Source: Naegleria gruberi
Taxonomy: Eukaryota
Assembly: GCA_000004985.1 (NCBI GenBank)
Contig: GG738866.1
Direction: 5' to 3' (one strand)
DNA: 64,000 nt
The position numbers and the translations under genes were made by a program. Position 1 is the stretch's first letter, and every line of letters starts with the position of its first letter. The notes under the pieces are model-generated. The model saw only the letters and a list, made by a program, of their open reading frames with translations, was not told where the DNA came from and searched no databases. Positions 5,270 through 54,711 of this stretch are shown piece after piece.

Positions 5270-7367
5270 CTATTGTTGATTGATTTCATGTTGAACTTCA
5301 TATGTGGCATATTGTAATGCCTTATCGGTTTGTGAAATGGCTGCCAAAACAATTGGCAAGTCACCTCTCAAAGTTTTAGAAGCAAAATAGAGTGTCATGC
5401 CATCCCTTTGAACAGCTATCTCTATTAATTGGTTTGAATTGAAAAAATAACTTACCATTTAAAACAACTTCTCTATCATGTCTGAAATGATCTGGTACAA
5501 ACTCGAGAGCTTTTGGATTAAGCTCGATCATATCTAATATGAATTGTTTTTGGGATTTAATTGACTCGGGAGTATACTTCAATGATCTGGCATCTTGAAA
5601 GACAGCTGCTGAAATGACAGTGAGATCTCTTTTAAGGGTTGGTGTGGCATATTGGATAGCTGTTCCCTTTTGATTTACAGCTAAAAATACCGTGTCGACA
5701 TCGTCCTTCAAAGCATCAGATGCATATTTTAGACAAATGCCTTTAACATTCAATACTTTTGCCATGAATTCTTTGTTTGCTCTTAGTTCTACTCCTGCAA
5801 ATTGAAGAGCATTCTCAAACACATCACCACAAGTTGTTGCTGCAAGATATGCCAATATTGGGTTCTTCTTCAAAGTAGTACTTGCATATTGAAGAGCCAT
5901 TGGTCTGTTACGAATGGCCAATTCCACAATATCAAACTCATCTCTCAGTCTTTGAGAAATATGTTGCAATAGGAAACCATTTTGTTTTACAGCAGCCTTA
6001 GCAATATTTACATTGTCTTTGAGTGCAGCAGAGCATTCATGAAATGCTGAAGAATTATTTTGAATAGCACAAAGGGCAACCTCTTCATCATCCTTCAATG
6101 TATCATTGGCATATCTAAACAAGCTACCGTTCTGAGTTACCATAGCTTTGACTATTGTTTTAAAGTTACAACTACTTGGAATCTCTCTGTATGTATGGAA
6201 TGAATATGGAAGACTTTCTCTCTGTAAAATGGAACCAATGTTGTAGTGAACATGATAAAAGTGTTTCTTCTTCATCTGAATCCAATTCTTAAAATTTACA
6301 ATCTCACTATGTTTTGTATGTTTAAACCAGAGAGAGCCATTCTGTTTACACAAGTGTATGAGTGTTGAGCCATCTGAAGTTTCACCAATCTTGACTTGTT
6401 CACCTTCATCTCTCCATTCACTAATAGGTAGCAACATGTTTGAAACGTGAAGGAATTTGTTATGCCAACTTGCTCTTCCATCACTCAATTCTATGAGAAA
6501 GGTCTTTAAATGATATGGAAGAATAACTTGAAATTTTCTTTCGAGTTGTGTAATGAGTATTGGACTGACAGTGTCTTCGTTCAATGGTTTGAGAAGGCAA
6601 GAGTTTTCCAAATTCCATAGTCTGAACAAGTCTCTCTTCTCCACTTGCAAACAAGCTCTGTGAAAATCAATGCTCACCCACTCTGCAATCTTTCTCGAAG
6701 AATCTTCCATGAAATTGAATATAATTTCAATAATATCACTTGGTAAATGACAGGATGGAACACAAGCTTGTGGGCTTTCTGGTGATTCGATAATTGATGG
6801 AGCACACGAAGTAGATGTTGAATTAATCTCTAAATATTTTGTATGGATATTTTGATGTGAGCATGTTTGATTGTCTGCATGGTGTTTAATTCTCTTCTTT
6901 GTCATTGGGAAGCAACTATCAGGAAGCTTGCTATCGAGAGGAGTTATCAAATCATATTCCTTCTGACTATGGTCCAAATCATCCTCATGATGAGTTAATA
7001 ATTCAGAATTGTGTTGTTCATCATCATAAACCTCTGAACATAATAGATTAACTTGAAAACCAGCTGATGCTCTTATTCTCTTCTTTACCTGTTGATGAGA
7101 ACGATTGGGGAAAGGAATAATCACTTCGGGTCCTCTTTCATGATCCTTACGGCAATCCGTGAGTGTTAATGCTGTTGAATGATCATCATCTTTAATTGTA
7201 TCAGTGTACTCTTCTTGTTGGTCAATGATTCTTCTTCCCACCAACAAACCGTGATGCTGCTTCCGTGCTGGTTGTGATGAAGCAGATGCTGTTGTTGTGG
7301 AGCCTCTGACAACATTCAAAGAATTGTATGGATTGTTTGTGGACATTTTATTGGAGTCAATTTTCAA
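5270..7367 (-). CDS. Protein with an F-box-like N-terminal region and tandem DUF4116-type repeats (LxYAS..LKxDxxxVxxAV.QNG.ALQYA). A 34-nt intron lies at 5422..5455.
   Basis: The 663-aa ORF contains about eight repeats of the form ALKDDVDTVFLAVNQKGTAIQYATPTLKRD. The next ORF (5270..5458) continues the repeat, and the join is in frame with a GTAAGT donor and TAATAG acceptor (phase 1, giving ...VVLNG-E-IAVQRDG...). Confidence 0.55.
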
Positions 7368-7715
7368 TAATTACCTCTTGGTTTTTATTGCTTCGTTCAA
7401 AGAATAATGGAGTGCTTTGTAAACCAATAAATTGGTACACGGTGTTGTTGTGATGGTGTGGATGGTGGTAATCTGGTAATGAGTGGTTCCTTTATAATGA
7501 TGATGAATTGTTCAATATGGCACACCTATCAGCTACAAAAGGAAGGTATGAGAGTTTGAAAAGGCGCCAATAAAATTACACAAATCAATATTTACGCTTA
7601 AAGACTGTAGTTGATGTATTGAATCGTGAAAAATCATGCAGTGGTAGGCTCATTATTGTATTTAATGTTAAATACATAAATGAAAATGGTAATAGTATTT
7701 ACAAAATGGAATTTA

Positions 7716-8603
7716 TTAAAAAACAATTTGTGCTCTTATTTGATCTAAAACTGAAAGAATGGCTTGAATTTTCACAATTTGCATCTTTCTTTGGTTTCTA
7801 ATCCAATTACTTTCTTTGAATTCAATCGAGTCCAGTTCAATTGTTAAATTCATTAATTCACCATCAAATCTTGTAAGTTGTTTCAGTATTTGATTAGAAT
7901 CAACTACTACTGTTGATGATTTGTTATTTTCTCTATCAGAAACAAATTGATCGACTCGTGACAAAACATTTTCAATTTTGGTTGCAATATCGAACACCTT
8001 CACTCCATCATCTCCACCAAATCTTTCTTTCATTTTCTTAAGACGAATACTTTCCTTTTCAATATCTTCTGTTGGTAATTCATATCTACAAGTTGGACAG
8101 GTATTATGTTCATTCAACCATGTACTCACACAATCTTTATGGAAAACGTGACCACAAGGAAGTCTTATCAGTTCATCACATTCTTCAAAATCACAAATGC
8201 AAACAGCACATGATTGGTCACAGTGTTCACCACATTGTGTCATAATTTGTTTTCGGAGAGGTGACAATTTGTAAGTAGGTAATGATTCTAAAGCATTCTT
8301 TTTCGTTGGTGCCTTCTTATTGATTTGATCCTGTTGATATTGTTGGAAGGATTGATTGGCAAAATCTGACATGTTTACATTATCGAACAGATTGGAGAAC
8401 GGAACATTATTCGAATATTGCATATCATTTGGTGAGAAGAACATTGTTAATGGCACACCATAGAAACAAAATTGTTGGTTTGTTTCTGGTTGCTGACGAT
8501 GGTGATTACCATCTTGGATAAAAATTGGTAAATTGAATAGAATGTTAAACATTTTCTTTTGTAATATATTTGATCGCTTATTCACAACACCGCTTGTTGT
8601 CAA
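7716..8603 (-). CDS. RING-H2 E3 ubiquitin ligase of the RNF126/BCA2 type.
   Basis: It carries the C3H2C3 RING-H2 signature CAVCICDFEECDELIRLPCGHVFHKDCVSTWLNEHNTCPTCR. The upstream PTYKL...L motif is typical of RNF115/RNF126. Confidence 0.7.
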   Translation of the reverse strand: MTTSGVVNKRSNILQKKMFNILFNLPIFIQDGNHHRQQPETNQQFCFYGVPLTMFFSPNDMQYSNNVPFSNLFDNVNMSDFANQSFQQYQQDQINKKAPTKKNALESLPTYKLSPLRKQIMTQCGEHCDQSCAVCICDFEECDELIRLPCGHVFHKDCVSTWLNEHNTCPTCRYELPTEDIEKESIRLKKMKERFGGDDGVKVFDIATKIENVLSRVDQFVSDRENNKSSTVVVDSNQILKQLTRFDGELMNLTIELDSIEFKESNWIRNQRKMQIVKIQAILSVLDQIRAQIVF

Positions 8604-9020
8604 TATTAAGATATTAAGACTTTTTTTTCAAGTTGGTTTTTCTTGTTTGTGTTTCGAATGGTCATTTTTAACGTTTTGAAAAATGCGACAAACTATTTTT
8701 ATGCGCAAAGGATTTTCCTCAGCTCTCGGAATGTGAAGGAAAATCAACTTCCGAACCTCAGATTCCGAAACTTTTATTAAATTGAAGTCAATGGTCTTTT
8801 ACGCTCACTAACAGTAAAGGACTGTAAAGTTGAATTTGGTTTCTTCTGAGATTATTCAAGAATATTGAGAAACGAAACCTTTTAGAAGGAAAAGCAAGGA
8901 GATAATTGTATTATGGATTGTTCTACAATGCTTTCAGAGAGAGATTGTTATTGGAATTGTTTTGGAATTAAAGATGTTGGAAACCTTACTCAATATCCTA
9001 AGAAAATCAGCTCCATAAGT

Positions 9021-9466
9021 TTACAAAAAGTTTGAGGTGGAATTGTTGAGGTTTTCGAGAACTCGTTTGTAGGTCTTGGCAGCTTTTTGATATCCCATAT
9101 TGGCAGCTTTTTCGAATACTTTAATGGCCTCCATTTGATTTATATCTAAAAAGTAGCCACCTTGATAAAGACAAGCCAGTATATAAATGAAAACAGGAGA
9201 ATTAGGATTGAATTGACATTGTGCAACGAGAGGTTTCAAAATAGTAAAGGCCAAATCGTCGTATTTTTCTTTCCATGCTAACTTGCCGGTCTTGTAATAT
9301 GCAAAAGGTATTAAAAAGTTTCCAGTGCATGATTGCTTGTAGTGATAGCTCTGAATACATTCTTCTCATATCCATTTCTTCCCTTCTCATAATAATACCC
9401 CTCAATATAGGAGATGTAATATTGAGCATCTTGATAGGTTTTGCCAGTTTTTGAGAAACACTCCAT
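9021..9466 (-). CDS. Sel1/TPR-like repeat protein. A +1 frameshift sits in a T5 run near 9268, so this is either a pseudogene or an assembly indel.
   Basis: Two frames read MECFSKTGKTYQDAQYYISYIEGYYYEKGRNGYEKNVFRAITTSNHALETF and FAYYKTGKLAWKEKYDDLAFTILKPLVAQ...KAANMGYQKAAKTY. Both are Sel1-like (A..Y..G.G...D). They join exactly if one T is removed from the TTTTT run. Confidence 0.4.
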
Positions 9467-9929
9467 TGCTTAACAGTTTAAATAAACCTATGCTTTTTCT
9501 CTCTATAAGATCACTATTTCTCTTAGTGTTTTATATCGTTTCCTCAATGCCCTGAAAAAGAATTTTCAATGAAAATTTACTGTTTGTTTCCAAGTTACAA
9601 ATTCTGTGGTTTAAGAATGAAATCTTTGAATCTCTCCTTTCGAATATTTGGTTGAGGTTTTGGACATTTGATAATGGATGGTGATTAATTCTGGTTCATT
9701 GTCTTGAGCTGTTTGAATGTCAAATTACCAATCACCAATTCAGTCTTCAATGATGAGATGGAGAATCTGAAATGATTTAGACAGGATTGTTTGCTAATTA
9801 ACCAATAAATTATGATCAAATTGAACTCAGTGGTACTGTAATAGTGAAAGGACTGCAAAGTTTCGTAAATATTGGGGTCATTCTAGAGTTCACGTTGTAT
9901 TATTTGTGAACAATTTGAATAGTGAGAAA

Positions 9930-10747
9930 CTAATCCTCATCTGGGCCTTTAACATCAGCAGTCCAATTACTCAAATTATCCCTCAATAATTGCAATATTA
10001 ACGTTATCTCACTTGAAATGTCCTCACCAGATTCGATCAAAATCTCAAGTTCTTTCATAGCTTTTGAAAATGCTGTTTGTGCAATTTCCACAGCTTTTTC
10101 ACACTCCCCTACAACCTCATATTTAAACACTGCCTGAGACAAAATCATTCCTAATCTAAGGGGATTCAGAATACTCAATTTAGTGGAAAATTCATTTGAT
10201 ATTTCATAACATTCCAATGATTTTCCCTTCCAATCCAGTCCAGAATTTTGATAATCAACTCGTGCAATATTTCTGTACAAGTCTCCTTTTTGTTTCCAAT
10301 AATAAACACAATCTTCTACTGATTGATCTTCCAATTGTAGAATTTTATCTATTATTTCAATAATTTCAACTGTAATTTCAATACATTTTTCTTGTAAATT
10401 TTTCATAAATCGTTCAGTCAACTTGACATTATGAAATTCATTCTTTGTTTCTAGTCTATCTCTTATTGACAATACAACATGATGAGGAGTTGTATAACAA
10501 GCAATTACATTCTTATAGGCTACCAACAACAGGTTCCTCTCTTCATCAGTCGGTCGTGGTTGACTAGAGTTGAGAATTTGTAAAATCAAACTCTTTATTT
10601 CCACCATCATTTCTGCAAATAATATATTACTAATAGATCTTTGGTAAACTTGTACTCACCCTCATAAAGTTCCGTTTGTTCTAGAAATTTAATAACGAAT
10701 AATTGATCGGAACGATAGTTAGTGTCAAGTGTTTGTTTTTGTGCCAT
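9930..10747 (-). CDS. 14-3-3 protein. Exon 1 is 10660..10747 and exon 2 is 9930..10612, separated by a 47-nt intron (10613..10659).
   Basis: Signature 14-3-3 motifs are present: EERNLLLVAYKNVI, YYWKQKGDLYRNIA, NPLRLGMILSQAVFKYEV and LILQLLRDNLSNWT. Splicing exon 1 (MAQKQ...DQLFVIKFLEQTELYE) to exon 2 (EMMVEIKSL) reproduces the conserved N-terminus. The intron reads GTGAGT...TTTGCAG and is phase 1. Confidence 0.85.
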
Positions 10748-10936
10748 TTTTTTGTAAAGTATCCAACATTTGACTTGCTGTTCATTCCTTTGCGTGAGTA
10801 AGAAAGCAGGATATGCTTTTCTGCCATAGAATTTAAAAAGCTGACCGTTATATTGTTGGCGCCACTTTTACATTCCCGCCTTTTAAAATCGTTGTTTTGT
10901 TATTGAAAAAATATTTTATCAAAACACATCAAAGAA
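10748..10936. promoter_or_regulatory. Bidirectional promoter shared by the 14-3-3 gene (minus strand) and the Aurora kinase gene (plus strand). It contains the palindromic TTGGCGCCA (E2F-like) element at 10858..10863.
   Basis: This is a 189-bp head-to-head spacer. GGCGCC is rare in this roughly 32% GC DNA. Confidence 0.45.
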
Positions 10937-12378
10937 ATGCAACCACACCAATCCTCTTCTCCATCCTCTACCAACACGATGAACAAGGAGAATGAACATT
11001 TTCACTTTCCAACCATGCCTTCCAAGACGCGATCATCTAAAACATCATCACCAACCAACAGCAATACATCACCAACCTCTCAACAAGCCAAACTAAAATC
11101 TGGTCAAAAAGTTTTTCCTTTCCATGTGGCTTATGGTATTTCCCCATCACCATCATTATCAACATCATCAAATACACAAAAACCAAGTGGTATTCCTAAA
11201 GTTGTGCACAATAAGAAGATTTTCAGCACTCCAAGCTCTGCTAAAAGTACCCAAAGAAAAGCTCTGGGCACTTTGAGTAATCAAAAATCTAATCAACTCT
11301 CCAATCTGCAAAATATGCATGCCAACATTACCATTACTCCACCAGAAAAGTTTACTCCTCATCCACCATCACAACCAAGAATTGTTGAAGAAACAAATGA
11401 AATGGTTGATGACGTAGCTGTTGATTCACATACTGTTACTAAGGAAGTTCCAGATGCTGAAATGAAGACTACAGAGTCAACCACTGAACAAACTCAATCT
11501 ACTACAACACAGGAATCATCAACTGGGGCTAAGAAATCTACATGGAAACTCCAAGATTTTGAAATTGGAAACTATCTTGGAAAGGGTAAATTTGGACAAG
11601 TATACCTTGCAAGAGAAAAGAGAACAAAATATATTGTAGCATTAAAGGTTCTAGATAAAGAACAATTAAAGAGAGAAGGTGTAGAACATCAAATCAGAAG
11701 AGAAATTGAAATTCAATCCCATCTCAGACACAAGAACATTTTGAGATTATATGGCTATTTCTATGATAGGCAAAAGGTATATTTGATTTTGGAATACGCA
11801 GCTGGAGGTGAATTATACAAACAATTACAAGAATGTAAACGTTTTTCTGAACCAGAAGCAGCTAGATACATTACAGGACTTGCCAAAGCTCTCAAATATT
11901 GTCATGACAGAAATGTCATTCACCGTGATAGTAAGTTTTCAATATTTCCAAGCAAAACAATTAACAAATACTAGTCAAACCTGAGAATTTATTGATGGAC
12001 TCAAATCATGATGTAAAAATTGCTGATTTTGGTTGGAGTGTTCATGCACCAACCACAAGAAGAACAACACTTTGTGGAACTTTGGATTATTTACCTCCTG
12101 AAATGGTTGAAGGAAGAGAACATGATTCAACAGTTGACTTGTGGTGTTTGGGAGTATTGTGTTATGAATTCTTAGTTGGTGAACCACCATTCATGGCTCC
12201 AACACAAGAAGAAACATTTAAGAAAATTAAGGATGTTGATTTACGATTCCCACCTTTCGTTTCTATTGATGCTCAAGATTTAATCAGTAGATTACTTGTC
12301 AAGGATACTTTGCAAAGAATGTCATTGACAGAATTATTTGAACATCCGTGGATTGTTAATAATTGCCCCGCCCAATAA
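10937..12378 (+). CDS. Aurora-family Ser/Thr kinase. Exons are 10937..11930 and 11975..12378, with a 44-nt intron (11931..11974).
   Basis: The kinase domain reads [14 protein letters not shown]...HRD|IKPENLL...DFGWSVH...[10 protein letters not shown], rebuilt across a GTAAGT...ACTAG intron (phase 1). The activation loop and C-terminal region are Aurora-like. The N-terminus is an S/T/P-rich extension. Confidence 0.85.
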
Positions 12379-12420
12379 ATTGTTTTTCTTTTTAATTAAA
12401 TTATTAATAATTTAAAAAAA

Positions 12421-13789
12421 ATGACCACTAGCAAACAGTTTACGTTGCCATCAACGCCTTCTCTGGCATATTTTGAGTGCCTTCTTGATTCTTTTCCGGA
12501 TGCAATTTTGAATACTATTGTGGATATAACAAAAGGAACAGATTCCAATTTTGATCAATACGAATCTGAAAAATATGTTGTGGTTAACAGAATTATTAAA
12601 CACTCCGTTAGAGCTGGTAGGTTTACAAAAAACTAATAATTTTAATGTGATTTTAGGATTTCGTATTTTTTCCCACTCTCTTGATAACGAAATGCTAAAC
12701 ACACTAATCCATATTTATAGACCATATCTAGAATCACGACATTCCAAAGCACAATTGGAATCAAGATATTTGATATTTAAGAAAGAAATAGTTTCAGATA
12801 TTTGGTGTCTGTTAGGTTTTGATAGATTTCTTCAAAATTTACCAATAGAAATAATTCACAAATTGTGTGAAGCTTTTGGATTTACTGAGGATGTAAATGA
12901 TAAAGAAAGTTTAGAGCTAGCACTTAAAGAGGAGATATTGATTATCGGATTTTGCGAAATTATTCGCAAACAAGAGTTAAAAATTCTTAATGCAGCTCTC
13001 ACATCTGTTAGAGAAAATTTTAAATCATTATTTGATCAATATCCATTTTTTGAGGATTCGTATTGTGTTTCAGATTATTTTGATGAGCAAGCGTATGCTT
13101 TATTCTTTCTTTCATTCAGTTTTCCTCATATAAGAAAGGAATTTATTGATTATATTCAAAACTCTGAGCAAATACTGAAAAAGCTTAATAATAGATCATT
13201 GAAGAAAATTCAAGCCCTCTCATTTACCAATGGTCAATCAGAAGAATTGGTAACATCATCTGAAAAGGATGTCCTTCAATTACTTGCAAAAAATCACACA
13301 AAGCAAGACAAAAATACAGAGAAGGGTGTCAAGGAAGAAAAAAATACAAAGAAAGAGAAAAATGATAAGAAACAAGAAAAATCAGCGGAGAAGCATGAAA
13401 AAGAAAAGAAAGTCAATAATATTAGTGAGCCATCTGTGTCAACTATCCCAACTAAAACCTCCAACAGAAACGATAGTAAACCTTTTGCCTCACCTAATGA
13501 AAAGAGTTCAGACGAGGATTCAGAAGAAACCTCAAACGAACCAACCTTTCCATCAAGTAAAGGAAGGGTTAAAATTGAAAAGGGTGTAACAGCAACTGAA
13601 ATTTACACCAACTATTCAGCCAAAGAGATTTATGATATTTGTAAACTATTGAAAATCAAACTTGCAGGTAACAGTACTGAGCGAACAAGACGAATTGTTA
13701 AATTCCTAAATGATGGAATAGTAGAAGCTAAACGTAAGAGAAAACGCAGTGCATCCTCCAAATATGCATCCTCCAAAAAATCAAAATAA
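12421..13789 (+). CDS. Lys/Glu-rich nuclear protein with a C-terminal SAP/DEK-C-like helix-loop-helix. Exons are 12421..12616 and 12657..13789, with a 40-nt intron (12617..12656).
   Basis: The intron reads GTAGGT...TTTTAG (phase 1) and joins ...HSVRAG to FRIFSHSLDNEML. The C-terminus reads ATEIYTNYSAKEIYDICKLLKIKLAGNSTERTRRIVKFL, followed by a KRKRKR tail. Assigning this to a domain family is tentative. Confidence 0.45.
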
Positions 13790-13830
13790 ATTATTAACAC
13801 TCCAAATTGATTTACCAACTTTACAAAAAA

Positions 13831-15273
13831 ATGTTAAAACGCCCTGCAGCATCAATTCTAAATTTGAAACGAAGCTTTATCTTCAAATCCCTACCAGCAC
13901 TTCACTACTCAATTACGAATTTTAAAATGAACTTGCAAATATCAAATCCCAACTTGAACCAATTCATTTCCGAAGAGGTTCCTTCAAGTTCATGCTTACT
14001 AGCCAGTGATCTTCACACGAAGCAGCATAATATTAATGATAATAATTTTATTATAAATACAACAACAGCAGAGAGTGATGAACTTCCGAATATTCTTTCA
14101 AAATTAAAAAAAATGAAACAATTGATATTTTTGGGTACAAGTTCTGGTGTGCCAACACCTTTGAGAAATGTCAGCAGTTGTGGTTTGCAATTGGATAACG
14201 GAGAAGTTTATTTGATTGATTCCGGAGAAGGAACACAACAGCAATTACAAGTATGTTTATAATTTATTGATCATGATGCTAATTGATTGCTATACCAATA
14301 TATGAAAAGTATTTTGAAATCTGGTAAAATTACAAGAATATTCATTACCCATTTGCATGGTGATCACTGTTATGGATTGCCTGGACTTTTGTGTACATTA
14401 TCCGGAAATAATCCTGTAACTAGAACTATTCTTCCGATTGTTGGACCTGTTGGATTGAAGAATTTCCTTCGTCAAACACTTTCATTGAGTGATGCCCATT
14501 TGAATTTCAGATTGGATATTCATGAAATTGTTCCACCAGAAATGACAGAAGAACAAGTTAAAAAGTATGATGAACAATGCATTGCTCCACTTGCTTGTGA
14601 ATATGATAGTGAAAATTGTTCAGAACCACCAAAGAGTGCAGGATCTTTTATTTATTTGAATAAGGAAACAAATTCTTACCCAGTTTTTGATTTGACTCAA
14701 ACTGATGCTGGATTGACTGTTCAAGCTGCACCAATTTTGCATCGAGTTTTCTGTGTTGGGTATGTGTTTACTGAAAATGACAAACCTGGTAAATTGGACA
14801 TGGAAAAGTGTAAACAACTTGGAGTTCCTAAAGGACCAATGCTTGGAAAAATTAAGAATGGCCAAACAATTACTTTGGATAATGGAACTGTTATCAAACC
14901 AGAAGACGTTGTTGGACCAACTATTAAGGGTAAAAAGTTAGTAATGCTTGGAGATACTCATAATCCTGAAGGAATTGCCACAATTGCTAGGGATTGCACT
15001 CTTTTGGTTCACGAAAGTACCTTGGAGGATAACATGAAAGAACTTGCAATTGATCGTGGACATTCTGTACCGTCAATGGCTGCTAATTTTGCGATCTCAA
15101 TCAATGCAGCTCGTTTAATTCTTACCCATTTCTCTGCTCGTTACGTTGACGAAAACAAACCAGAAAGTGAATTACACGAAAACGAAGTATCAGTCTCTCT
15201 CTTGAGAAAGCAAGCTCAACAAGTATTTGCCAATGTAGAGTTGGCTTCTGATTTTGCTGTCTTTACCATTTAA
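13831..15273 (+). CDS. Short-form RNase Z (ELAC1-type tRNA 3' endonuclease). The exon junction near 14251..14312 does not close in phase.
   Basis: The first part reads [13 protein letters not shown]...[14 protein letters not shown], and the second reads [28 protein letters not shown] (HxHxDH). Aligning to ELAC1 gives [19 protein letters not shown]. The likely start is the ATG at 13831 after an A-rich context, since the ORF track used a TTG start at 13807. Confidence 0.7.
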
Positions 15274-15351
15274 AGAATCTAAAATAAAATTAATTTATTC
15301 ACAAGTTTCATTTCTTTATTTACAATATTTACACTTAGTTGAACTTAATGC

Positions 15352-16048
15352 TTAGAGAGTTTTGGCCAAATACAAACTCCAGAAGAAACCAATAATGTTG
15401 AAGAAGAGTACAACAAGGTCTGGAGGGCTAGAACTCAAAACAACAATAGTAGCAAGTGGCCAAAGCATATAACCTGATTTCAAAGTGGTATAGAAATCAC
15501 GTTTCAAGTTGGCCAAAGCCTTATCTACCACAAAAGCTCTTGATTCAACAAAGGCCAAAACAACAATATAAAAAGCATTGATGAATGGAGCATAAACAGC
15601 TTGATCAATTAAGGTAGGAACCAATGCAAACTTTTCAATGGTTGGGTTGCAAACGATTGGTCTCAACGATTTGATTTCCTTCAAATAATCCATAATATTA
15701 TCCAAAAAACCATACCAAAAGTGAGAACAAGCAGAGCTGCATCCTCCTGTAATTGTAAAATTAATAACTGAATTCCAATCAATTTCTGTCTTTTTCTTGA
15801 TAAACTTTTGGCTTACAATATTAGCAATAAAAGTAATAAGAGCAGCTGTAATTGATTTAACTGCGACTGGTGGGTACTTTTCCATTAACATTTTGTAAAA
15901 ATTCAATATTTTCTTTAATTGATCGGCAAGAGAGTTTGACTTTCTACGAGAAGGATCACCTTTAATAATATTAATTCGGGTTCTCTTTTCTTCTCCTTTA
16001 CCCTCTGATTTAATATCAATAACATCCGTTTGATCGTCTTGACTCATT
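15352..16048 (-). CDS. Mpv17/PMP22-family membrane protein (peroxisomal or mitochondrial inner-membrane type).
   Basis: It is about 230 aa with four predicted TM segments. The match to Mpv17/PMP22 is spread along the protein, including YLKEIKSLRPIV, AVYAPFINAFY, GFFWSLYLA and MLWPLATIVVL. The likely start is MSQDDQ after an A-rich context. Confidence 0.65.
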
Positions 16049-16163
16049 TTTTTATTATTAATTTTTAAATAAAAAACCAAAGTACTAGAAGGCGCCAATA
16101 CGTAATTTCCTTACTAGAAGGTTTTGATTTTCAAACATTTTGACAAGTTGAGTACCTACCTTC

Positions 16164-17537
16164 TTACAATATTTTCTTTTCCGAAATTACTTTCTTTCTA
16201 GCACAAAAGAAGACACAATCATAAACTGTTTGTCTCATGATTTTTCTTGTGTTTCCAAATGATGAAATGTAGGTGTTCTTAATATTGACCTTTTCATTTA
16301 CAATTTCAAATCCCATTCCCTCCATTACTGATTTAATTTCCTCATAAGTTAATTCAATAGAAAATCCATTATCTCCCATTTCATGATAATGCCACAATAA
16401 TGGTCCCAAATTAATCCAATATCCTCCCTCTTTCAATGAATGAAATATAGTGTTAAGGTAATCAAAAATATTTTTAGCAGTGTCAATAAAGAAGCAAGTT
16501 GCAATACAGTCCCAAGATTCCTTCTGCGATTCATTCTTGTATACGTCCACAAAATCACCAGCAACCATTGAAAAATCTACACCCTCTTTTAATTCTAATC
16601 CAGGATGTACATCTGGTATATTGAAAGAATAGAGCTGATCCGTCCTAGAATAGAGATCAGTAAGATGTGTAACGAATGGATAAATTTGAAATTGTTCTAT
16701 TCTTCTCTGATTGTTTTCTTCAAATATTTTGTAAGGATGATTCAAAATAAAATTACTAGCTAGCAACATTTGAAATGAGAATTCATTACCTTGACTGGCA
16801 TATCCCAATCTAGCAATTTCCCATGTCAAACGGCCGAGACCAGCTCCAGGAGTGAGCACTCGATACTTGTTAGTTTCTCCAAAAAGAGGAAGTACTCTTT
16901 GCAATTCATCGATTATGAGTTGGTAACTTTCATTTCTTTCGAATGCACCTTCTGCACTCCAGTCTCTAGCAAACTGTTTGACAGTTGAAGATACCTTATC
17001 ATAATCCTCAGATGATAAAATACTTTCAATATCATCATTTCTAAATTGATATGCTGGAATGTCAACCTCCATTACTCTTGGCCTCATATCAAGAGCAATA
17101 CTTGATGCATCATTACTCTCCAGAGGTTTATCATTAATTTGTTGTTCCGAAAATCCAAGAGAATGAGAGTCCAATATTTTCAATATCAAATTGTCATAAT
17201 TTTTCTGGATGGCTTCCTTCATTTGTCTGAATTTTTCAAAATGGTCCGGTAATACTGTTTTTACGTCAGTATAGGCTTTACTATTTCCCAAATTTTGATT
17301 CCAAACTTGTCTGAAAAATTGAATTTTCCTATCAAAATACTTGAAATAATACTTTTCATATCTTGAGAAGGCTATCAAAACTTTGGAAAAAACAAAATCT
17401 TCACTTTCCAAATCCTCTTGCATTAATTCCTCATTCGACATGATAATAGAGCCGGGTATCCATCTCGAATGTTGATTGTGTTCTTCACTTTCCGAACCTT
17501 CTGCATGATGGTGAGAATCACAACAATGATGAGACAT
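16164..17537 (-). CDS. N2227-like methyltransferase of the carnosine N-methyltransferase (CARNMT1/YNL092W) family.
   Basis: Conserved blocks are present: RVLTPGAGLGRLTWEIARLGYASQGNEFSFQML (SAM-binding motif I), WDCIATCFFIDTAKNI and YWINLGPLLWHY. Confidence 0.75.
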   Translation of the reverse strand: MSHHCCDSHHHAEGSESEEHNQHSRWIPGSIIMSNEELMQEDLESEDFVFSKVLIAFSRYEKYYFKYFDRKIQFFRQVWNQNLGNSKAYTDVKTVLPDHFEKFRQMKEAIQKNYDNLILKILDSHSLGFSEQQINDKPLESNDASSIALDMRPRVMEVDIPAYQFRNDDIESILSSEDYDKVSSTVKQFARDWSAEGAFERNESYQLIIDELQRVLPLFGETNKYRVLTPGAGLGRLTWEIARLGYASQGNEFSFQMLLASNFILNHPYKIFEENNQRRIEQFQIYPFVTHLTDLYSRTDQLYSFNIPDVHPGLELKEGVDFSMVAGDFVDVYKNESQKESWDCIATCFFIDTAKNIFDYLNTIFHSLKEGGYWINLGPLLWHYHEMGDNGFSIELTYEEIKSVMEGMGFEIVNEKVNIKNTYISSFGNTRKIMRQTVYDCVFFCARKKVISEKKIL

Positions 17538-17723
17538 TTTTTGTTACTTTTCAAACCCATAATCTCCAATATTTTAAAAATAAAAATGATAAAGGAGCTT
17601 GCACTGTAATGGGGTCGAGCTTAAGCTGATGATACAATCTTTGCAACCGACTGTTGAAGGACGATACTCTTAGCAATATGGATCAACCATCTGATCAAGA
17701 GAAAGAATTTTAATTTTTAAAAA

Positions 17724-18896
17724 ATGATTAAACGGAAGTGTTTGAAGGAGGAGGCTAGCATTGTTTGGAACGAGAGAATAGAAGAAAGAAGATTGCAAAT
17801 ATTGAAAAAACGATTATTGTTGAAGGAACAAATTTTGGAGGAAATTAGAGAAAGTGGGGATGAGGAATTGGAAATGTCGGGAAGTAAAAAGAAAAAGCCT
17901 TTGGAAAAAACTATCACAAAGTTTGTTAAAAAGCATAGACTTTTGCCTTTGATGCAAGAGGAGTATTTACTTCCGAATGATGAATTTACTTGTGAAACTG
18001 ATGACCAAATGCTACGATTAGTATTTGATAAGAATAACTGGAATGAAAATGACTGGTATTTGTTGTATAGGCCACAAGGGAGGAGAGTATTGGTAATATC
18101 TAACAATATGTATACATTTGTTGTGGAAATGAAAGCTAAAGAGAATAATTTATTTATCAAAAAATATCTTTCAGTTTTACAAAGTATTGGAGGAAAACGT
18201 CAGTCTTTTACAATATTAGATGCTATTTTATACGAAACTAATGAAGAGAAGAAGCTTTATATACTTGATCTAATTGCTTGGAATGGGCATTATTTTAGCT
18301 CTAACCCAGCCGAGTTTAGATTTTATTGGCTCACCCAAAAATGGAGGGAGGATCTCAACGACAATATGTACACTAAAGATCAGATAGATATGGAGCTTTG
18401 TGAAAGGATTTCCCTCAACGAATTTTTTGCCAATGTTGACAAATACCATCCAAATTATGAAACAGATGGTCTATATCTTTATCATAAGGAAGGGGATTAC
18501 GTTCATGAGACCTCTCCTTTCTTATTAGTATTTAGAACTTTTAATAATTGCACGTATTTGAAAGAGTTAATGCAATCAGGAATATTCACATTCAAAATGA
18601 TGTATGAAAAGCATGATTCACTGGCAAGTATTAAAATTGGCCAATTAGAAGTTAAGGTTGGAGTTTTACCTCATATTGAAACTAAATCTGTTGTAAAAGT
18701 TAAATTAAGGCTAAAACAAAATGTTATGGTAGATGATGATATTCAATCGGATAATTTTGAAATTATTTCTATTGAAGAGGATCCACTTTTTAAAATAATT
18801 GGAAAAGGAGAAGGGGAAAGCTATTGTGATACTTTTGGAAAAGTGCTTTTTTACTTATCTATTCAAAATTTACAAAATGATGCAATGATACTTTAA
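17724..18896 (+). CDS. Snurportin-1-like m3G-cap snRNP import adaptor.
   Basis: The N-terminus resembles an IBB domain, with basic and acidic residues (RRLQILKKRLLLKEQ). Cap-binding domain blocks are present: FTILDAILYE...LYILDLIAWNGHYF, FRFYWLTQKW and ETDGLYLYHKEGDY. Confidence 0.7.
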   Translation: MIKRKCLKEEASIVWNERIEERRLQILKKRLLLKEQILEEIRESGDEELEMSGSKKKKPLEKTITKFVKKHRLLPLMQEEYLLPNDEFTCETDDQMLRLVFDKNNWNENDWYLLYRPQGRRVLVISNNMYTFVVEMKAKENNLFIKKYLSVLQSIGGKRQSFTILDAILYETNEEKKLYILDLIAWNGHYFSSNPAEFRFYWLTQKWREDLNDNMYTKDQIDMELCERISLNEFFANVDKYHPNYETDGLYLYHKEGDYVHETSPFLLVFRTFNNCTYLKELMQSGIFTFKMMYEKHDSLASIKIGQLEVKVGVLPHIETKSVVKVKLRLKQNVMVDDDIQSDNFEIISIEEDPLFKIIGKGEGESYCDTFGKVLFYLSIQNLQNDAMIL

Positions 18897-20805
18897 GCAA
18901 ACGTTCCTATTTCCATATCCTCACTAACCTCTGACATGTCGATAACATTTGCCATATCATATTGTGAACTCTCTTCTTGAACGGGCACTCCTTCATCAAC
19001 TTGGGAAATATCTCTCGGAATTGGTAGATTAGCAATTTCAGTCAACCACTTTTCATTATAGAGGAAATATTTTTTCCTCTTAATGATATCTGTCCACTGA
19101 CCATCACATTCACAAATTATATCAAGCATCATATCAGATGTTGAGGCAATTTGTTCATTCTCGTCTTGATATAACTCTATAATAACCTTGATAATATGGT
19201 GCTGACTCATTAAACCTTCCCTTGTTGGTCCAAATAAAAGCATCTTGTAGAATGTGTACATGGTTTGTAAAACTATTTCATCATCTTCTTGTTTTTCAAT
19301 AAATATATTACATAAGGTAATTATCATTGGAGAATTGGCTACTAAAGCTGCTGATTCATCATCAGAAATTGCATTACCAAGAAGAATAATTGATTCTAAC
19401 AGAATATCATCATCTTTGTCGCCTTCCACATTGGTTAACGAGTTAACAAGGCTGCTTCTTGTTTTTACCCCCTTTTTCAAGAAATTGAATAAGAAAGCAA
19501 CCAAATCAAATTGTTTGAATAGCTGAGAAAATGAAATAACATTCGAGTTACTCATATTTCCCAACATACCCAGTAATTCTACAACCAATTCATCATTTTC
19601 CGCCTTAGAACAAATACCTAGGATGTCATTTACAAATGGCTTGAATTGAATAGCCAGTTGAGTATGCTGAGAAATATTTCTAATCATCTTGGCTAAGAAA
19701 GGATCTCTTGTCCTCACCAATCTCTCCAATAATCTTGTAAGACCATTATTGTGCAAACACATTTTAACAGCCAATTGTTCTTGAAGTGTAACATTGATGG
19801 CTAAGGCAATTAATTCCTTGCTGACTCTTGTACCAGGATATTCTGCAACAAATTCCAAAAGAATAAATGGGAGAGTATCAGAGGAAATTCTCAATTTTGA
19901 AAATTCTTCATCTTGACTCAATTGATACAACAGCTTTACACAGTATTCAAAGTGGTCTGGGAACCGAAGTAACTCTATGAATTTAGGAACCAAAGGAATG
20001 ACATCCTTTCTTAATTGAGGATCGAAGGTAACATTGACAATCAATCTCATACTTTCATTCAACAAAATAATGTTGTCATATTGGAAAATATCTTCAAATT
20101 TAAACATAAGTCCAGCGTCCAACATTTCCCTTCTGTTTTCTTGGAATATACTAAGTTTCCTCAAAAATGTTACTAGAACACAAAGCAGTTCAGGGTTTTC
20201 ACTATCTAGAGCATTGACCAAGTTTGGAATCAATCCTCTCTTCTTCATTTTGGATTCTATGTCAATGTTCTCTGCTAAATTCAATAAAATTCTAAAGCAA
20301 ACATAAAGAAGATTCTCTTGTTTGGTTATCATACCTCCAACTTTCTTATTTTCATTCTTATTTTCCTTCTTCTTTAACATTTTTTCTCTTCTTTTTTCCT
20401 CATAGGCAATTGCTTCCATCACTACAACTCCAACCTTGAATTTGGTGATTATTTCATGAAATTGAGAAAAATGGGAAAAACTATAAAACACATAGAGTAT
20501 ATTAATCATCAAGTCCATACTCTTTTTTCCTTCCTCCCTCAATGTTCTTCCGAGTAAGTTTAATAATTGTTCTATTTCGTTGTTCCACCTCAACTAATTC
20601 CTAATGTTATTTACTTACCATGAGACACTAGGTACTGTAAATTCACTGGATTTTTCGAGAGCATCATTATATAATAAGATGCCTTGACCTTAGGAGTCAA
20701 ATCACCATGCTCATAAAACATTTCGAGATACCTATCTAGTTGATCGATAGAAATGTATTCCTCTCCCGGGTTGTTGTTTGATGAGGCGCTTTGTACCCTA
20801 CTCAT
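18893..20805 (-). CDS. Kinesin-associated protein 3 (KAP3/KIFAP3), the accessory subunit of heterotrimeric kinesin-II and an armadillo-repeat protein. Exons are 20620..20805 and 18893..20571, with a 48-nt intron (20572..20619).
   Basis: Exon 1 ends ...PVNLQYLVSHG. Splicing GTAAGT...GAAATAG (phase 1) gives ...G-E-QLLNLLGRTLREEGKKSMDLMINILYVFYSFSHFSQFH, matching human KIFAP3 ...[41 protein letters not shown]. The block AKMIRNISQH is also conserved. Confidence 0.8.
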
Positions 20806-21095
20806 TTTTTATTGGAAGTACTTGTAATTACTCGTGAATAACTGTTTGGCGGGATTCATCAACAGACATAAGAAATCCAAATTGGTGGTAGTTTAGTTCT
20901 TCTTCAGCTCACAATGACCCTCCACAGAGATAACATTCACTCATATTGAGAAGAGAGCAACTTGTAAAAACAGGATGAATGTTTCTCACCCTTCGTTCTA
21001 CTCATAAACGAACATGCAACACTTATGAAGTTGATTGTATTTCCTTTTGTTGTCAAAAAAGCGCCAAAGTCTACAATAAATAAAACCTTAAAAAA
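20806..21095. promoter_or_regulatory. Divergent promoter shared by KAP3 (minus strand) and the KATNIP-like gene (plus strand). It contains a GCGCCAAA (E2F-like) element at 21061..21068.
   Basis: This is a 290-bp head-to-head spacer between two cilium-related genes. The motif lies about 30 nt upstream of the KATNIP ATG. Confidence 0.4.
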
Positions 21096-25724: not shown

Positions 25725-26627
25725 TTAATCTGCTTCATCATCAGAAAGTTCACTATCTCTGGATAAATCCATTTGATCATTTTCCTCTCTCACTAAGTGG
25801 CAATTCATAACATCAAGAATTGCAGGGAAATCAACTTTTTCTTGGAGTCTCTTTTGAGAAAACATTAAAATCTTTAAAAGAAGTTGAAGTTTTGGTGTTG
25901 CTTCCAACTGTTGACTTTTCAATATTGCTGAATTCAATTCACTTGCTGTTTTCTGCCTTTGACCATTTCCTAAAAGGCTCGAATATGGGCAAGACTTTTG
26001 ATCCTCAAATGCCAATAAGCTCATTACTTTTTCGACCTCCTGTAAAAACTCTGAATTATCCTCTACAAGAGGTACTAATTCTTCCTGGGCGAATCTTGTT
26101 TACAAATTGTTACAATCCATTACAATGATATTCTTACCTTAATGCATCATCTATTTTTCCACTCCTTATTAATTCAATCAATTGTTGTTGTTTCAGTTTG
26201 AAGAATAACTCTGGAGATGAATCGAGAATTTGTGGGTTCAGCATATTGACTTCTCCAATTGCTCCGATAATATCTCCCTCAATAACCTTCTTCCTAATTG
26301 TTACTCGTTCTCCAATTCCATTTGTATTAGTTTCATTTGTATCTTTGTTAACAAAGTATTGCATTATTATGCTTTCATTGTCAATTATACCTACCATCAT
26401 TCTTCAAGCCTGATTCTTGTTGAAAAACTTGAGCAGCCTCTTTATAACCCTCCACAACCAAATAATTCAAAACAAGAGAATCCAAATCACTGAAATTATA
26501 TTGATCACACTCTTAAAATAAATCATTAAAATTACCTTCTATTGATTTTAATTTGCGCCAACTTATCTTCCCACTCATTCCGATCAATAATTGATTTTTG
26601 AAAGGCTCTAACTGCTGGTTTAGACAT
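25725..26627 (-). CDS. GID8/TWA1 homologue, a LisH-CTLH-CRA subunit of the GID/CTLH E3 complex. Exons are 26536..26627, 26395..26489, 26138..26339 and 25725..26084.
   Basis: The protein rebuilds as MSKPAVRAFQKSIIDRNEWEDKLAQIKINR|SDLDSLVLNYLVVEGYKEAAQVFQQESGLKNDG|DTNE...FFKLKQQQLIELIRSGKIDDALR|EELVPLVEDNSEFLQEVEKVMSLLAFEDQ...QRQKTASELNSAIL...TPKLQLLLKILMFSQKRL. It is collinear with human GID8. Introns 1 and 2 are in phase, and intron 3 (26085..26137) is off by one nucleotide. Confidence 0.75.
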
Positions 26628-27018
26628 TTTTTTATTTTTAATCTTCTTAATTTAGATTCATTGTAAAGAATCATAAATTGTTGCCTTACTTTTCTCAGTA
26701 TTTGTAAGTAGGTTGAATTGGTTCTTCACTCTTTGTTTTATTTATTACAATGAAAGCAACCTATAGAAAATCATATATTCTGTTGTAACTTCTATTTCAT
26801 TAAATATCTCACTCAAACTCCTCTTTGTTTTTATCAAAGGTTGTCTAAATGAGCTCTTATTCTTGAAGAAAATACTCTTCCGCCCCTAACAAACAATACA
26901 CAATCTAAACATTCACTATTATTAATTAATAAATAGCTAAATAATTATTCTCTGATGGTTTCTGTTGATGAGATGATGACAATAATAATTGAACCAAATT
27001 TTTATTGATTCAAAAAAA

Positions 27019-33402: not shown

Positions 33403-34313
33403 TAGGATGCATCTTTAATTTGCTATTATATGTTTAATATATGAAAGGATATTTAGCATTGATAACAACAAGGTTATCCTAACAGTCTCTAAACTTGGTG
33501 ATGATTCAATCAAGGGATAACAGTAGCGACTGTTGGAGTTTTTTTTGTTATTTTCGTTAATTAACTTTTTCACCAATTTTGAAAGCAACCAAACACACAT
33601 GTAGTTCATGCTATTCAATCCTTTGAGTGGAGCCATTCATTCATCACACTGGCCAACACAAGTTGTGTTACTGACTTTACACTGCTCTTCGTACTTCAAT
33701 AAAGGGCATTGTAATGATTGGCAGCGTTCTTCGATTAAGCAAACGCGCAATGATTCGATGCTTTAGAATTTATAGTATCGTTACTAAAACAAACATTTAC
33801 ACCAAGTTTGTTAATTGCATTTTGTTTGTTTTTTTAAAATTTTCAATTATTACAATTTTAATGTTATTCAGACTCGTGATTGACTAAATTGCCGTAGATG
33901 GTGATCTACAGATACTTCAGTAATTATTGAGGAATTTAAAGTGCCATATAGGTTTGTCATAATTTAGAAATTTTTTTTTTGTTGTTAAAACAGTCGAAAA
34001 TGAGAAGGAATTTTTTAGAGATTGAGTATGTCCAATTTCTTCCTTTAGTCTACTTCCAAGTATTGAGAACGAATGAACAAAATATTAAGGATATTAATAA
34101 GTTGTCATATTTAGTTTTCATTCATTTCTCAACTTTGCAGAAGAGAGTTGGAATGCTTGATTATTGTCTTTGTAACCAACCAATATCTGGCTTGGTGTCT
34201 TGCTTGCCAACTGCCAATTCAAACAATTCTAAAACTCATTTTCTCAGATATTACAACTTCCAGTTCAAAAAATAATTAGTAAATTTTGAACAACAAAAAA
34301 AACTAATCACAAC

Positions 34314-49793: not shown

Positions 49794-52700
49794 TTAAGAA
49801 AGGATGAGAGACATTACAACATCAATAGTGTCATCTTGTGTAGTACCATGAGAAACAATCAACAACTTTAAAACATGATGCAAATGCTCTGCGAGTTGAG
49901 GATAGAAAAGTAGGAAGGAATCAATGAATCGTTTGTCTTGGAAAATAGCTTTTTCAAAGTTTGTTTCCATAACATAGATTACTTCATTTTCAATATCTGA
50001 ATGGATATCTCTGGATATTTCACATGAATTTCCATTTCCTATAATTGCTGTGACTGACAAGCTTTGAACTATTTGAAGATCCATTTCTTTTGGAGTGAAA
50101 CCTTGACGAGATAGATACTTATTGATATTTTGAACCATTACCTTAAATTTCTTCAAAATATTATCACAATCTGTAGTGGATGGTGTAGTCTTTGGATGCT
50201 TGTAAGAAATCGTATCACTCAATGGTTTAATTTTAAAAAATTGGAGAAAGTGTGATAATTCTGTTACATTTCTAACAAATAAACAATCAACAACATTTTG
50301 TAATTGTTTGTAACTTTCCTCATTATCACAATAATAAATTGCTTCTGAAAAATGTATTCCCTTATCACTTCTAAAGATCTTGTAGTTATTACAAAAGGCT
50401 CTGTCAAGTCTATCATTCTTGATTTGGCGATTGATCTCTTTGTATAAAACTAAACATTTGTTGTCAGCATTATCAGTATCCTTCTCGAGCTTTTCAATTT
50501 CTTTACAAATAATGTGGAATGGAATTTCTTGAGAAATATCAAAATCATTATACTTATTATCGACTTGTAATAAATTCAAAGCAGGAAAATCAACCATTAA
50601 TTCAGGGCTCAGTATCTTGAATAATTCTGTTTTCTTGTGTTTTCTATTGTGGCAAACAATCAACCCATTATCATAAATAAACTTGAGCATTTTCTGTTTG
50701 TAACAAGTTCTCTTACAATATTTCCAAACATTAAGAAATTGATCATCGGTGATATTATCAGACAAGAGGAATTCTCTAATCTTCTCCTCAGGTACAACTC
50801 TTTCCTTGTTATTGTCTTTGTATTTCACAAGATTTGACAATTTACCAAACCTCCTGGATAGATCAAGTTCCCTAAAGAATGGAATATCTTTCAACTCTAA
50901 TAAATCCCAAATCATGGAAGATGGAAGTGAAAAACTAAAACCTTCAGAAACAAGCACTTCTAATTGGGATAGTTCTTTGTTGCTTAATTTTGAAATGTCG
51001 TTCACTACAATACTGTTCAAGTGCGTCTTGAGGATTTGACAAAGATCTGGAAGTGTTTTGATATCATTTGATTGAATTACATTCTTAATAATAGTACTAT
51101 TAGGAAAGTAATTATATAAAAGTAATTCGTTAACTTCAATAGGGAATACTTCTCGCATTGAAAGATCCCAATACATTTTGGAAAGCGGTATCTTCTTGTC
51201 ATTGTTAGCAGTTACATAAATTCCACTTAAAGAAACAATGGCTGTTGAAGTAGAACTCCTTCGTGTATTGATAATAGCTTCTATGAAATATTGTTGGTCG
51301 CTTTTTGTTGGATTTTCATCAAGCAAAATAGTTTCATAATGACTTGTGGAAAGGGTATTGAGGATGGAGTTAATCTCACCATATTTGTAGCTGTTGTGTA
51401 TTTCTTTCCACTCAGGTCTGTACTTTTGAAGCTTTGCATCCATGGAGTAGAATAGATTGTTATCTAAAACAACGAATTCACCATTTGTGGTTATTAGTAG
51501 TGGTTGTGTTTTGAGTAACTTTTGAATGTGTGTGGAAAATTGTGATTTTAAACCATGTACAATAGATGACACACTTTTTGTTTTCATGATTAAATTTTGG
51601 TAAGCTTGTAGATCTTCTTTTTTTGCTCTCAATCCTTCTTTCAACTTGGCGTTCTTGATATAAGGTAAATAATCAATGGTATCACTGAAAATCTTACGTA
51701 GATCGGGATCATAAAGATTTTGAATATTCTTGTTCAAGAAATTGTGAATACCATTGATTTGGTTCTGGAATAATGAAAAATTATTGTCGAAATATTCTAT
51801 CAAGCTCTCTAAAGTTTGGTATTGTTTTCTGAGCTCCTTAAATTCTAATGTTTCTTCATAATTATACGAATATGATTGCTGTCTAAAAAGAGTGGGAACT
51901 GTTTTTGTTCCCAACTCTATCAAAATATTCGATATGTTGTCAGTGCTGTATATTTCATGCTTTTGCTTGTATAATATTTGTACAAGACTTTCCAAATCTA
52001 CAAACTTGGCTTTTTCCAAATATGATGTATGTTTTGAATGGATATAACATTGATTTGGGTGCAGCCACTCTCCATCTCGTGTCAAGCAAATTGGGCTTAC
52101 TAATGTCTTTCTTTCATGAAAGAGAACAAACAATTCTTCGTTTGATAATACATGTAGATTTTGGATATGTTGAGTGGTAGATATTAAGTGTTTGTAATCT
52201 TTTAAGGATGTATCAAGACAGTGATTGGAAGCTTTTTCAAGAAGTAAAAGACTGCTTTTAGATAAATCGCAATCCAAAATGTTTTCGGATGGTTTTACAA
52301 GTTTCTGAAGTCTTGTTGGTACAATTTCAAAATCCAAAGACTTGACACCAATATTAAAGTGTTTAAATAATTTGTATAATTGTACAATCTTATCAAATTT
52401 CAAATTGTATGGAAGGTTTTTAGCTAGATTAACAACATGTTGTTTCTCAAACTTTGTAAAAAGTTTATCCCATTGTTTGAACATTAGCTTTTCATTTTCA
52501 AATTTCGTGTCAATACATTCCTTGTTTAAAATAATAAAAGTTGTTTCAATTCCAAATGCTTCATAAGGATTGATAGGTGAATTACCCATTAATATAATAT
52601 TGGAGGGTTTTTCAAAATATTTAGTTTGACCTCCCAATAAAGGAATACAATCAATATTTTGTAATAGATTAATTGTTTTAAATTGTACATTGCTGAAATG

Positions 52701-54494: not shown

Positions 54495-54711
54495 TTCCGA
54501 TTAAATTATTAATTTTCATAAAAGGTTCGTGAGTAATGTTGATCTAATTTTCAAGCCTTCATGATTTATTCTTCGCCCGAAGGTCAGCACGTTGTATTAA
54601 TACTTTGCTTTAATTAACTGTTTCTTGTTTGTGTATTTTTTTCTGTTTGGTTTTTGGCGGGAATGAGTTTTTAAGCTTTTTTAAAAAAAGAAAACAATAT
54701 TTAATGCTAGT

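Follow-up and report, generated by a model that had tools for sequence, protein, structure and literature searches.

Candidate E2F-type boxes in Naegleria gruberi promoters and a conserved composite element upstream of the Aurora kinase gene

We analysed a 64-kb stretch of the Naegleria gruberi genome (GenBank assembly GCA_000004985.1, contig GG738866.1; scaffold_22:405336-469335), hereafter the window, in which a GC-rich hexamer, GGCGCC, recurs in promoter regions including that of an Aurora kinase gene. The window is gene-dense and has a GC content of 33%. Pfam matches in it comprise DUF4116, RING-BAG, 14-3-3, an Aurora-type kinase, Mpv17/PMP22, carnosine N-methyltransferase, snurportin, KAP and KATNIP/DUF4457, in agreement with the names given to the genes downstream of the motif in an earlier annotation made by a model from the DNA letters (the sequence-only reading). 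That reading had located GGCGCC at three positions (7563-7568, 10858-10863 and 16091-16096) and a half-site, GCGCCAAA, at 21061-21068, and a recount reproduces all four. Related boxes that it had not listed are found as TTCCCGCC at 10873, TTCCCGCC at 54656 and ATCCCGCC at 20848. The sites and the genes that concern us are as follows, in window coordinates.

7563..7570, minus strand: TTGGCGCC box in the context ATTGGCGCCTTTTC, 216 nt 5' of the DUF4116 ATG (7346)
5376-7346, minus strand: coding sequence (CDS) of the DUF4116 gene
10856..10863, plus strand: Aurora box 1, TTGGCGCC, 73 nt 5' of the Aurora ATG
10873..10880, plus strand: Aurora box 2, TTCCCGCC, 56 nt 5' of the Aurora ATG; GC half of a bipartite module
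10889..10895, plus strand: TCGTTGT, second half of that module, separated from the CCCGCC core by exactly 8 nt
10937..12378, plus strand: Aurora kinase gene in two exons, the same as AKG0024 (scaffold_22:416272-417713, length identical)
16091..16098, minus strand: TTGGCGCC box in the context ATTGGCGCCTTCTA, 43 nt 5' of the Mpv17 ATG (16047)
15352-16047, minus strand: Mpv17 CDS, jgi_33383 (scaffold_22:420687-421382; Kennard et al. Data S2)
20848..20855, minus strand: ATCCCGCC box in the context AATCCCGCCAAACA, a weaker relative, 42 nt 5' of the ATG of KAP (kinesin-associated protein)
21061..21068, minus strand: TTTGGCGC, the earlier half-site, 27 nt 5' of the KATNIP ATG (21096), in reverse orientation
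54656..54663, minus strand: TTCCCGCC box in the context ATTCCCGCCAAAAA, 257 nt 5' of the annotated ATG (54398) of a GHKL/sacsin-like gene (P0241)
49794-54398, minus strand: the GHKL/sacsin-like protein, 1534 aa, matching a predicted protein of N. gruberi at 100% identity
1752..1758, minus strand: weak TTGCCGC box, 296 nt 5' of the lipin ATG (1455)
25725-26629, minus strand: multi-exon LisH-CTLH (GID8/TWA1-like) gene, not visible as a single open reading frame (ORF)

Most of these boxes occupy short gaps between genes. The 7563 box lies 146 nt past the stop codon of the RING-BAG gene, Aurora box 1 in the divergent spacer common to the 14-3-3 gene and Aurora, and the 16091 box inside the 116 nt of spacer that follow the carnosine N-methyltransferase stop codon (16164). 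The 21061 site falls within the 290-nt divergent spacer of KAP and KATNIP, for which the KAP start codon was set at 20805 by alignment to the N-terminus of Willaertia KAP; the KATNIP half-site alone is weak evidence. The 54656 box has the E2F/DP- and E2F7/8-type spelling and is 48 nt past the stop codon of the upstream gene; its context ATTCCCGCCAAAAA makes it the best E2F/DP-type site of the window. Distances from box to start codon span 27-296 nt, with the weak lipin box included. The range of 30-200 nt that had been proposed is approximately right, since the 73 and 43 nt of the Aurora and Mpv17 sites fall inside it and the 216 and 27 nt of the DUF4116 and KATNIP sites slightly outside. The same reading had placed none of its four sites in coding sequence, and this holds for 4/4, including the site at 16091, which overlaps a mechanical stop-to-stop ORF yet lies 5' of the published jgi_33383 CDS start.

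To judge how unusual this recurrence is, the counts were compared with dinucleotide-preserving shuffles of the window (n=100). By chance 0.33 copies of GGCGCC are expected, fewer even than the one copy assumed in the sequence-only reading, and none of the 100 shuffles reaches the three observed. All three extend to GGCGCCAA/TTGGCGCC (3 observed against 0.13 expected). The shorter GCGCCAA is found 5 times (0.64 expected), TTSSCGCC, in which S is G or C, 6 times (0.36 expected) and TTSSCGC 10 times (2.53 expected), and for these last two patterns again 0/100 shuffles reach the count. GGCGCC is thus one spelling of a wider box, TTSSCGCC, which occurs mainly as TTGGCGCC and TTCCCGCC.

The boxes are also concentrated outside coding sequence. 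As a proxy for coding DNA we used stop-to-stop ORFs of at least 100 codons, which span 84% of the window. None of the GGCGCC copies is coding, and the chance that all three fall in noncoding DNA is P ~0.004. For TTSSCGCC the noncoding-to-coding ratio is 5:1 (P=6e-4), the sole coding copy being TTGCCGCC at 37137. For TTSSCGC it is 7:3 (P=2e-4), a count in which the fifth GCGCCAA (26555) has been moved to the coding side: exon 1 of the LisH-CTLH gene (ATG 26629) holds it as TTGGCGCA, which would otherwise be miscounted as noncoding. In all five noncoding cases the sequence 5'-TTSSCGCC-3' is in sense orientation relative to the gene that follows. The window has 19 runs of six or more G/C letters; eight are truly noncoding, and six of these eight are GGCGCC or CCCGCC boxes. 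The remaining GC hexamers that contain CpG show a weak bias (noncoding:coding 8:22), and GCCGCC, the GCC-box spelling, is seen in coding sequence only. When words of noncoding DNA are ranked de novo, A/T-rich words come out on top, and GCGCCA(A) is rare but exclusive. A dispersed repeat as the origin of the boxes is ruled out, the flanks of different boxes being unrelated and unalignable.

We then extended the comparison to relatives. The Aurora and E2F loci used came from Naegleria lovaniensis (L001, L005), from a Naegleria sp. assembled by Logan (L002), from Willaertia magna (L004, L006) and Acrasis kona (L007), and from the metagenomic relatives L008, L011 and L012; a contig from a near-identical strain (L010) contains only 33 nt 5' of Aurora and was uninformative. 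In about 120 kb of Naegleria, Willaertia and L008 loci TTSSCGC is again mostly noncoding (noncoding:coding 10:1, P=2e-6). Box density in the relatives is low, at one per 10-20 kb, and N. lovaniensis has just two TSSCGCC matches in 42 kb, both of them at Aurora.

The Aurora promoter provides the strongest conservation. An E2F-like box is found 39-121 nt 5' of the Aurora ATG in 8/8 of the heterolobosean lineages recovered, in surroundings that barely align. For box 1, N. gruberi has TTGGCGCC, L011 and L012 have TTGGCGCCAA, and N. lovaniensis and L002 share TTCCCGCC, so the GGCGCC and CCCGCC spellings swap at one orthologous position. Box 2 is CCCGCC, CGCGCC or ACCGCC depending on the lineage. 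In seven of the eight lineages a box is followed by exactly 8 variable nucleotides and then NCGTT, as listed here.

N. gruberi, window 10873-10895: CCCGCC - ttttaaaa - TCGTTGT
L011, 17-45: CCCGCC - aatgtgaa - ACGTTAC
N. lovaniensis, L001 9874: CCCGCC - aacacaat - TCGTTAC
Naegleria sp., L002 9882: CCCGCC - atcaaaat - TCGTTAC
L008, 9934: CGCGCC - tcaaagta - TCGTTAC
Willaertia, L004 9940: ACCGCC - aagtttga - CCGTTTA
Acrasis, L007 9956: GGCGGT - aaataaaa - TCGTTTA

The exception is L012, which has TTGGCGCCAAA and then AACTGTTA. The consensus of the second half in the relatives is NCGTTAC, whose reverse complement, GTAACGN, resembles the Myb-type mitosis-specific activator (MSA) element. A degenerate form of the bipartite pattern has no other match in 207 kb on both strands (shuffles give 0.74 in total), a scan that shows specificity and not independent enrichment, the pattern having been derived from the same sites. 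The module is deeply conserved and plausibly drives cell-cycle-phased transcription.

The published expression of the gene is consistent with such a role. In RNA sequencing of heat-shock arrest and release, with samples before, during and after arrest (Kennard et al., bioRxiv 10.1101/2024.01.08.573270, Data S2), Aurora (AKG0024, 'CPC Aurora') has a log2 fold change of -5.1 in mid-arrest and of +4.0 to +4.65 at 10-30 min after release, an induction of 16-25 fold. Its cluster, number 1 ('up in mitosis'), also contains MCM5 and mitotic kinesins. We found no N. gruberi entry for the Aurora gene (10937-12378) among the NCBI/UniRef matches listed, unlike for other genes of the window, and the best named homologues come from N. 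lovaniensis and Willaertia magna. The original N. gruberi annotation apparently lacks the gene, and the id AKG0024 of Kennard et al. is a curated one.

Candidate binding proteins are encoded in the genome. Medina et al. 2016 (PMC4862756) include NgruE2F, NgruDP, NgruDEL and NgruRB in their supplementary alignments, and each of the four has the RRxYD DNA-contact motif, as reported from those alignments. NgruE2F has orthologues in N. lovaniensis, N. fowleri, Willaertia and Acrasis. Its DNA-binding domain shares an identical 23-residue stretch with human E2F4 (PDB 1CF7), and the recognition helix is nearly identical, so that the search for E2F/DP genes proposed alongside the motif has come out positive. 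The boxes themselves match the E2F consensus TTTSSCGC / TTSSCGCC, including the forms GGCGCC and TTCCCGCCAA obtained by in vitro selection (SELEX). According to Morgunova et al. 2015 (PMC4686757), homodimeric E2F has GGCGCC as its SELEX site, beside the canonical TTTC[CG]CGC, and the preference of E2F/DP is for TTGGCGGGAA (TTCCCGCCAA in reverse complement). Since both are documented there, both Naegleria spellings are bona fide E2F-family site sequences, and the description of the motif as E2F-like fits the specificity of the family.

Taken together, the GGCGCCAA elements are probably binding sites of the Naegleria E2F family, a prediction in which we have reasonable confidence. The binder would be an E2F/DP heterodimer, an E2F homodimer or a protein of the DEL/E2F7-8 type. 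It would recognize a TTSSCGCC box 27-260 nt 5' of start codons, with the T-rich flank usually on the gene-distal side. At Aurora the two boxes and NCGTTAC would most likely form a module that confers cell-cycle (mitotic/S-phase) transcription through a switch of the E2F-RB type. At DUF4116, Mpv17, KAP/KATNIP, the GHKL-like gene and lipin the same factor probably modulates transcription, and it is the noncoding restriction and the orientation of these non-Aurora boxes, and these only, that point to a function for them. The sequence match, the noncoding restriction, the conservation at Aurora, the encoded factors and the mitotic expression of Aurora are observed here; binding of E2F proteins to the boxes, and control of the expression pattern by them, are what we infer.

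This assignment is in line with what is known of E2F/DP sites in animals and plants (TTTSSCGC; SELEX forms TTTGGCGCCAAA and TTGGCGGGAA), whose core and flanks are the same as those of the Naegleria TTGGCGCC(AA) and TTCCCGCC(AA). As in those systems, the boxes are promoter-proximal and often in tandem pairs, cognate E2F, DP, DEL and RB proteins are encoded, and a mitotic kinase gene is a putative target. Unlike them, the Naegleria boxes belong to a discoban amoeboflagellate, lie in spacers of 100-300 nt, show a strong sense-strand bias and precede genes most of which are not known E2F targets.

Several observations weigh against an E2F assignment. The box-bearing genes besides Aurora (DUF4116, Mpv17, KAP, KATNIP, GHKL-like, lipin) are not a classic E2F regulon. 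Mpv17 stays about 4-fold up between mid-arrest and the 40-min point after release, has returned to baseline by 80 min, and is placed in cluster 60 with no mitotic flag (Kennard et al. Data S2). In the one case outside Aurora open to a conservation test, the Willaertia Mpv17 promoter, a box was looked for and not found. The view of the sequence-only reading that the motif is a conserved cell-cycle element is partly supported, at Aurora by conservation and by mitotic induction, and finds no backing at Mpv17. In the Aurora promoter of Acrasis the only match is GGCGGT, in which the GC half of the module is on the opposite strand, and in the 21 kb of the Acrasis kona locus (39% GC) the noncoding restriction fails, with 6/6 TTSSCGC copies coding. 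The 21-kb E2F-gene locus of N. lovaniensis has no TSSCGCC and hence no sign of autoregulation. Hexamers made of G and C alone lean somewhat, as a class, toward noncoding DNA. Finally, the sample is small, comprising one 64-kb window and about 140 kb from relatives.

Some of these points would suit a different reader of the same DNA. The SSCGCC boxes could be regulatory and bound by a factor outside the E2F family, such as a zinc-finger protein or a lineage-specific GC-box binder, the likeness to E2F sites being coincidental: most of the box-bearing genes are not cell-cycle genes, Mpv17 lacks mitotic induction, a sense-strand bias in 5/5 noncoding TTSSCGCC boxes is no hallmark of E2F sites, and GC-rich hexamers generally lean toward noncoding DNA. 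Yet the degeneracy observed at orthologous positions (GGCGCC/CCCGCC/CGCGCC), together with the T/A-rich flanks, is exactly that of the E2F consensus TTSSCGC(C), and the GCC-box spelling is confined to coding sequence. E2F, DP and DEL proteins with an unchanged recognition helix are encoded, and the best-conserved site sits at a mitotic gene. We regard a non-E2F binder as unlikely, although worth keeping in mind. Less likely by far is a general core-promoter or transcription-start-positioning element that would account for most of a promoter where spacers are very short, a suggestion also made in the sequence-only reading. The short distances to the ATG, 27-73 nt for five boxes, and the 116-nt Mpv17 spacer, which leaves little room for anything else, would fit such an element, but a TTSSCGC or TCCCGCC box is present in only about 7 of the window's some 35 spacers, and the distance to the ATG varies. 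Only three intergenic regions have a box in the 42 kb of N. lovaniensis, and the top of the noncoding word ranking is taken by A/T-rich words.

That the recurrence is due to chance, or is a compositional by-product of CpG/GC depletion in coding sequence, is a reading that small counts (3-10 sites) and a codon usage that at 33% GC disfavours GC-rich words might invite. It is largely refuted by the shuffles, 0/100 of which reach the observed counts. Composition cannot account for the noncoding bias because coding DNA is slightly GC-richer than noncoding DNA (33.4% vs 30.0% in the window), so GC words should favour coding sequence, and the Aurora boxes are kept in eight lineages with unalignable surroundings; we give this explanation hardly any credence. 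Equally improbable in our view is an element acting in the transcript, as an RNA motif of the 5' untranslated region for translation or stability. The uniform sense orientation close to the ATG would be expected of such a motif, but the core is palindromic or strand-swappable, with GGCGCC and CCCGCC interchanging at one position, some sites of related loci point the other way (L002 5910, L005 1033), and the GC half of the Acrasis module (GGCGGT) is on the opposite strand. An E2F-family protein binding DNA is the reading that we retain.

The composite architecture at Aurora can be compared with two known types of element active at G2/M. The cell-cycle-dependent element and cell-cycle genes homology region (CDE/CHR) are bipartite elements of animals, bound by DREAM/MuvB and found in the human Aurora, cyclin B and CDC25C promoters, with the layout of a GC-rich CDE, 4 nt and a CHR of sequence TTYGAA. 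Like CDE/CHR, the Naegleria Aurora promoter couples a GC-rich E2F-like half to a second short element at a fixed distance, at a mitotic gene. Unlike it, the spacer is 8 nt instead of 4 and the second half is NCGTT(AC), in full NCGTTAC, instead of TTYGAA, so the arrangement falls outside the definition and identity with CDE/CHR is ruled out. The second type is the MSA element of plants, which is bound by Myb3R, has the core AACGG and acts with E2F in DREAM-like complexes. The second half of the module resembles it as the reverse complement GTAACGN and in the G2/M class of the gene, and the AAACGG of Willaertia contains the exact MSA core. That canonical core is seen in the module of Willaertia only; most lineages have AACGA or AACGT, without the final G of the Myb core. 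To our knowledge, MSA elements have not been described with such a fixed 8-nt link to an E2F box. The Aurora composite (E2F box, 8 nt, NCGTTAC) could conceivably be the docking site of a DREAM-like complex of E2F-RB and a Myb-type protein in Discoba, a tentative proposal that we think improbable. If it were true, the bipartite G2/M cis-logic known in its animal CDE/CHR and plant E2F+MSA forms would move back toward the last common ancestor of eukaryotes (LECA).

A Myb-domain gene adjoins Aurora in some of the relatives. It is located directly 3' of the kinase in L007 (11216-12086), L008 (11212-12633) and L012 (1818-3068), a conserved synteny, and is not present at that position in N. gruberi or N. 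lovaniensis. Its identity as a cell-cycle 3R-Myb is not obvious, the gene having a single Myb repeat only. In L008 it is flanked by two TTTTCGCGC sites, one of which is 257 nt 5' of a kinesin gene.

Among the other promoters, boxes occur upstream of two flagellar genes, KAP and KATNIP. These boxes might, speculatively, mean that E2F also feeds the amoeba-to-flagellate programme; such a putative input would be reminiscent of E2F4/5-multicilin in animal multiciliogenesis. The Willaertia KAP promoter has GGCGCT only, a weak match, and metagenome scans with KAP, first as a single protein and then as an alignment, returned nothing usable, the sole match being a 1.4-kb contig at 40% identity. The orthologous lipin promoter of L002 has TTTGGCGC 143 nt 5' of the ATG. 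In the Willaertia E2F gene TTTGGCGC is found 46 nt inside the annotated CDS start and is ambiguous. The 1534-aa GHKL-like protein has sacsin/NO VEIN-like GHKL ATPase motifs (EFIQNADD ... GEKGIGFKT), and a Pfam search with it gave no match.

Other short motifs were noted in passing. A perfect palindromic E2F-type site, TTTTGGCGCCATTTT, is located at 17396-17404 of the Willaertia L004 locus, 209 nt 5' of a dolichol-kinase-like gene, and is the only GGCGCC in that 21-kb locus of 21.5% GC. In the window, the octamer CTCAATAT/ATATTGAG has six copies (8862, 8989, 9401, 9419, 20943, 40653), all outside long ORFs and none inside; two of them, at 9401 and 9419, are arranged as an inverted pair, CTCAATATaggagatgtaATATTGAG. 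A further motif, GTTAATTA, has five matches, in noncoding DNA only, including the palindrome GTTAATTAAC at 33556.

In the literature we found no E2F site, promoter motif or other cis-regulatory DNA described for Naegleria or any heterolobosean, and the search likewise yielded no E2F/DP binding assays (EMSA, ChIP, DAP-seq) or mutational tests of these promoters. If real, the E2F-type box of Aurora would be the first candidate promoter element of this lineage, and it could help in designing expression tools with regulated promoters for Naegleria. Of the leads, the E2F-N8-NCGTTAC module and the KAP/KATNIP boxes most merit follow-up. An E2F, DP and RB system is inferred to have been present already in LECA (Medina et al. 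2016, PMC4862756). In agreement with this, the boxes, if real, would extend the E2F-RB cis-logic of animals and plants to Discoba.

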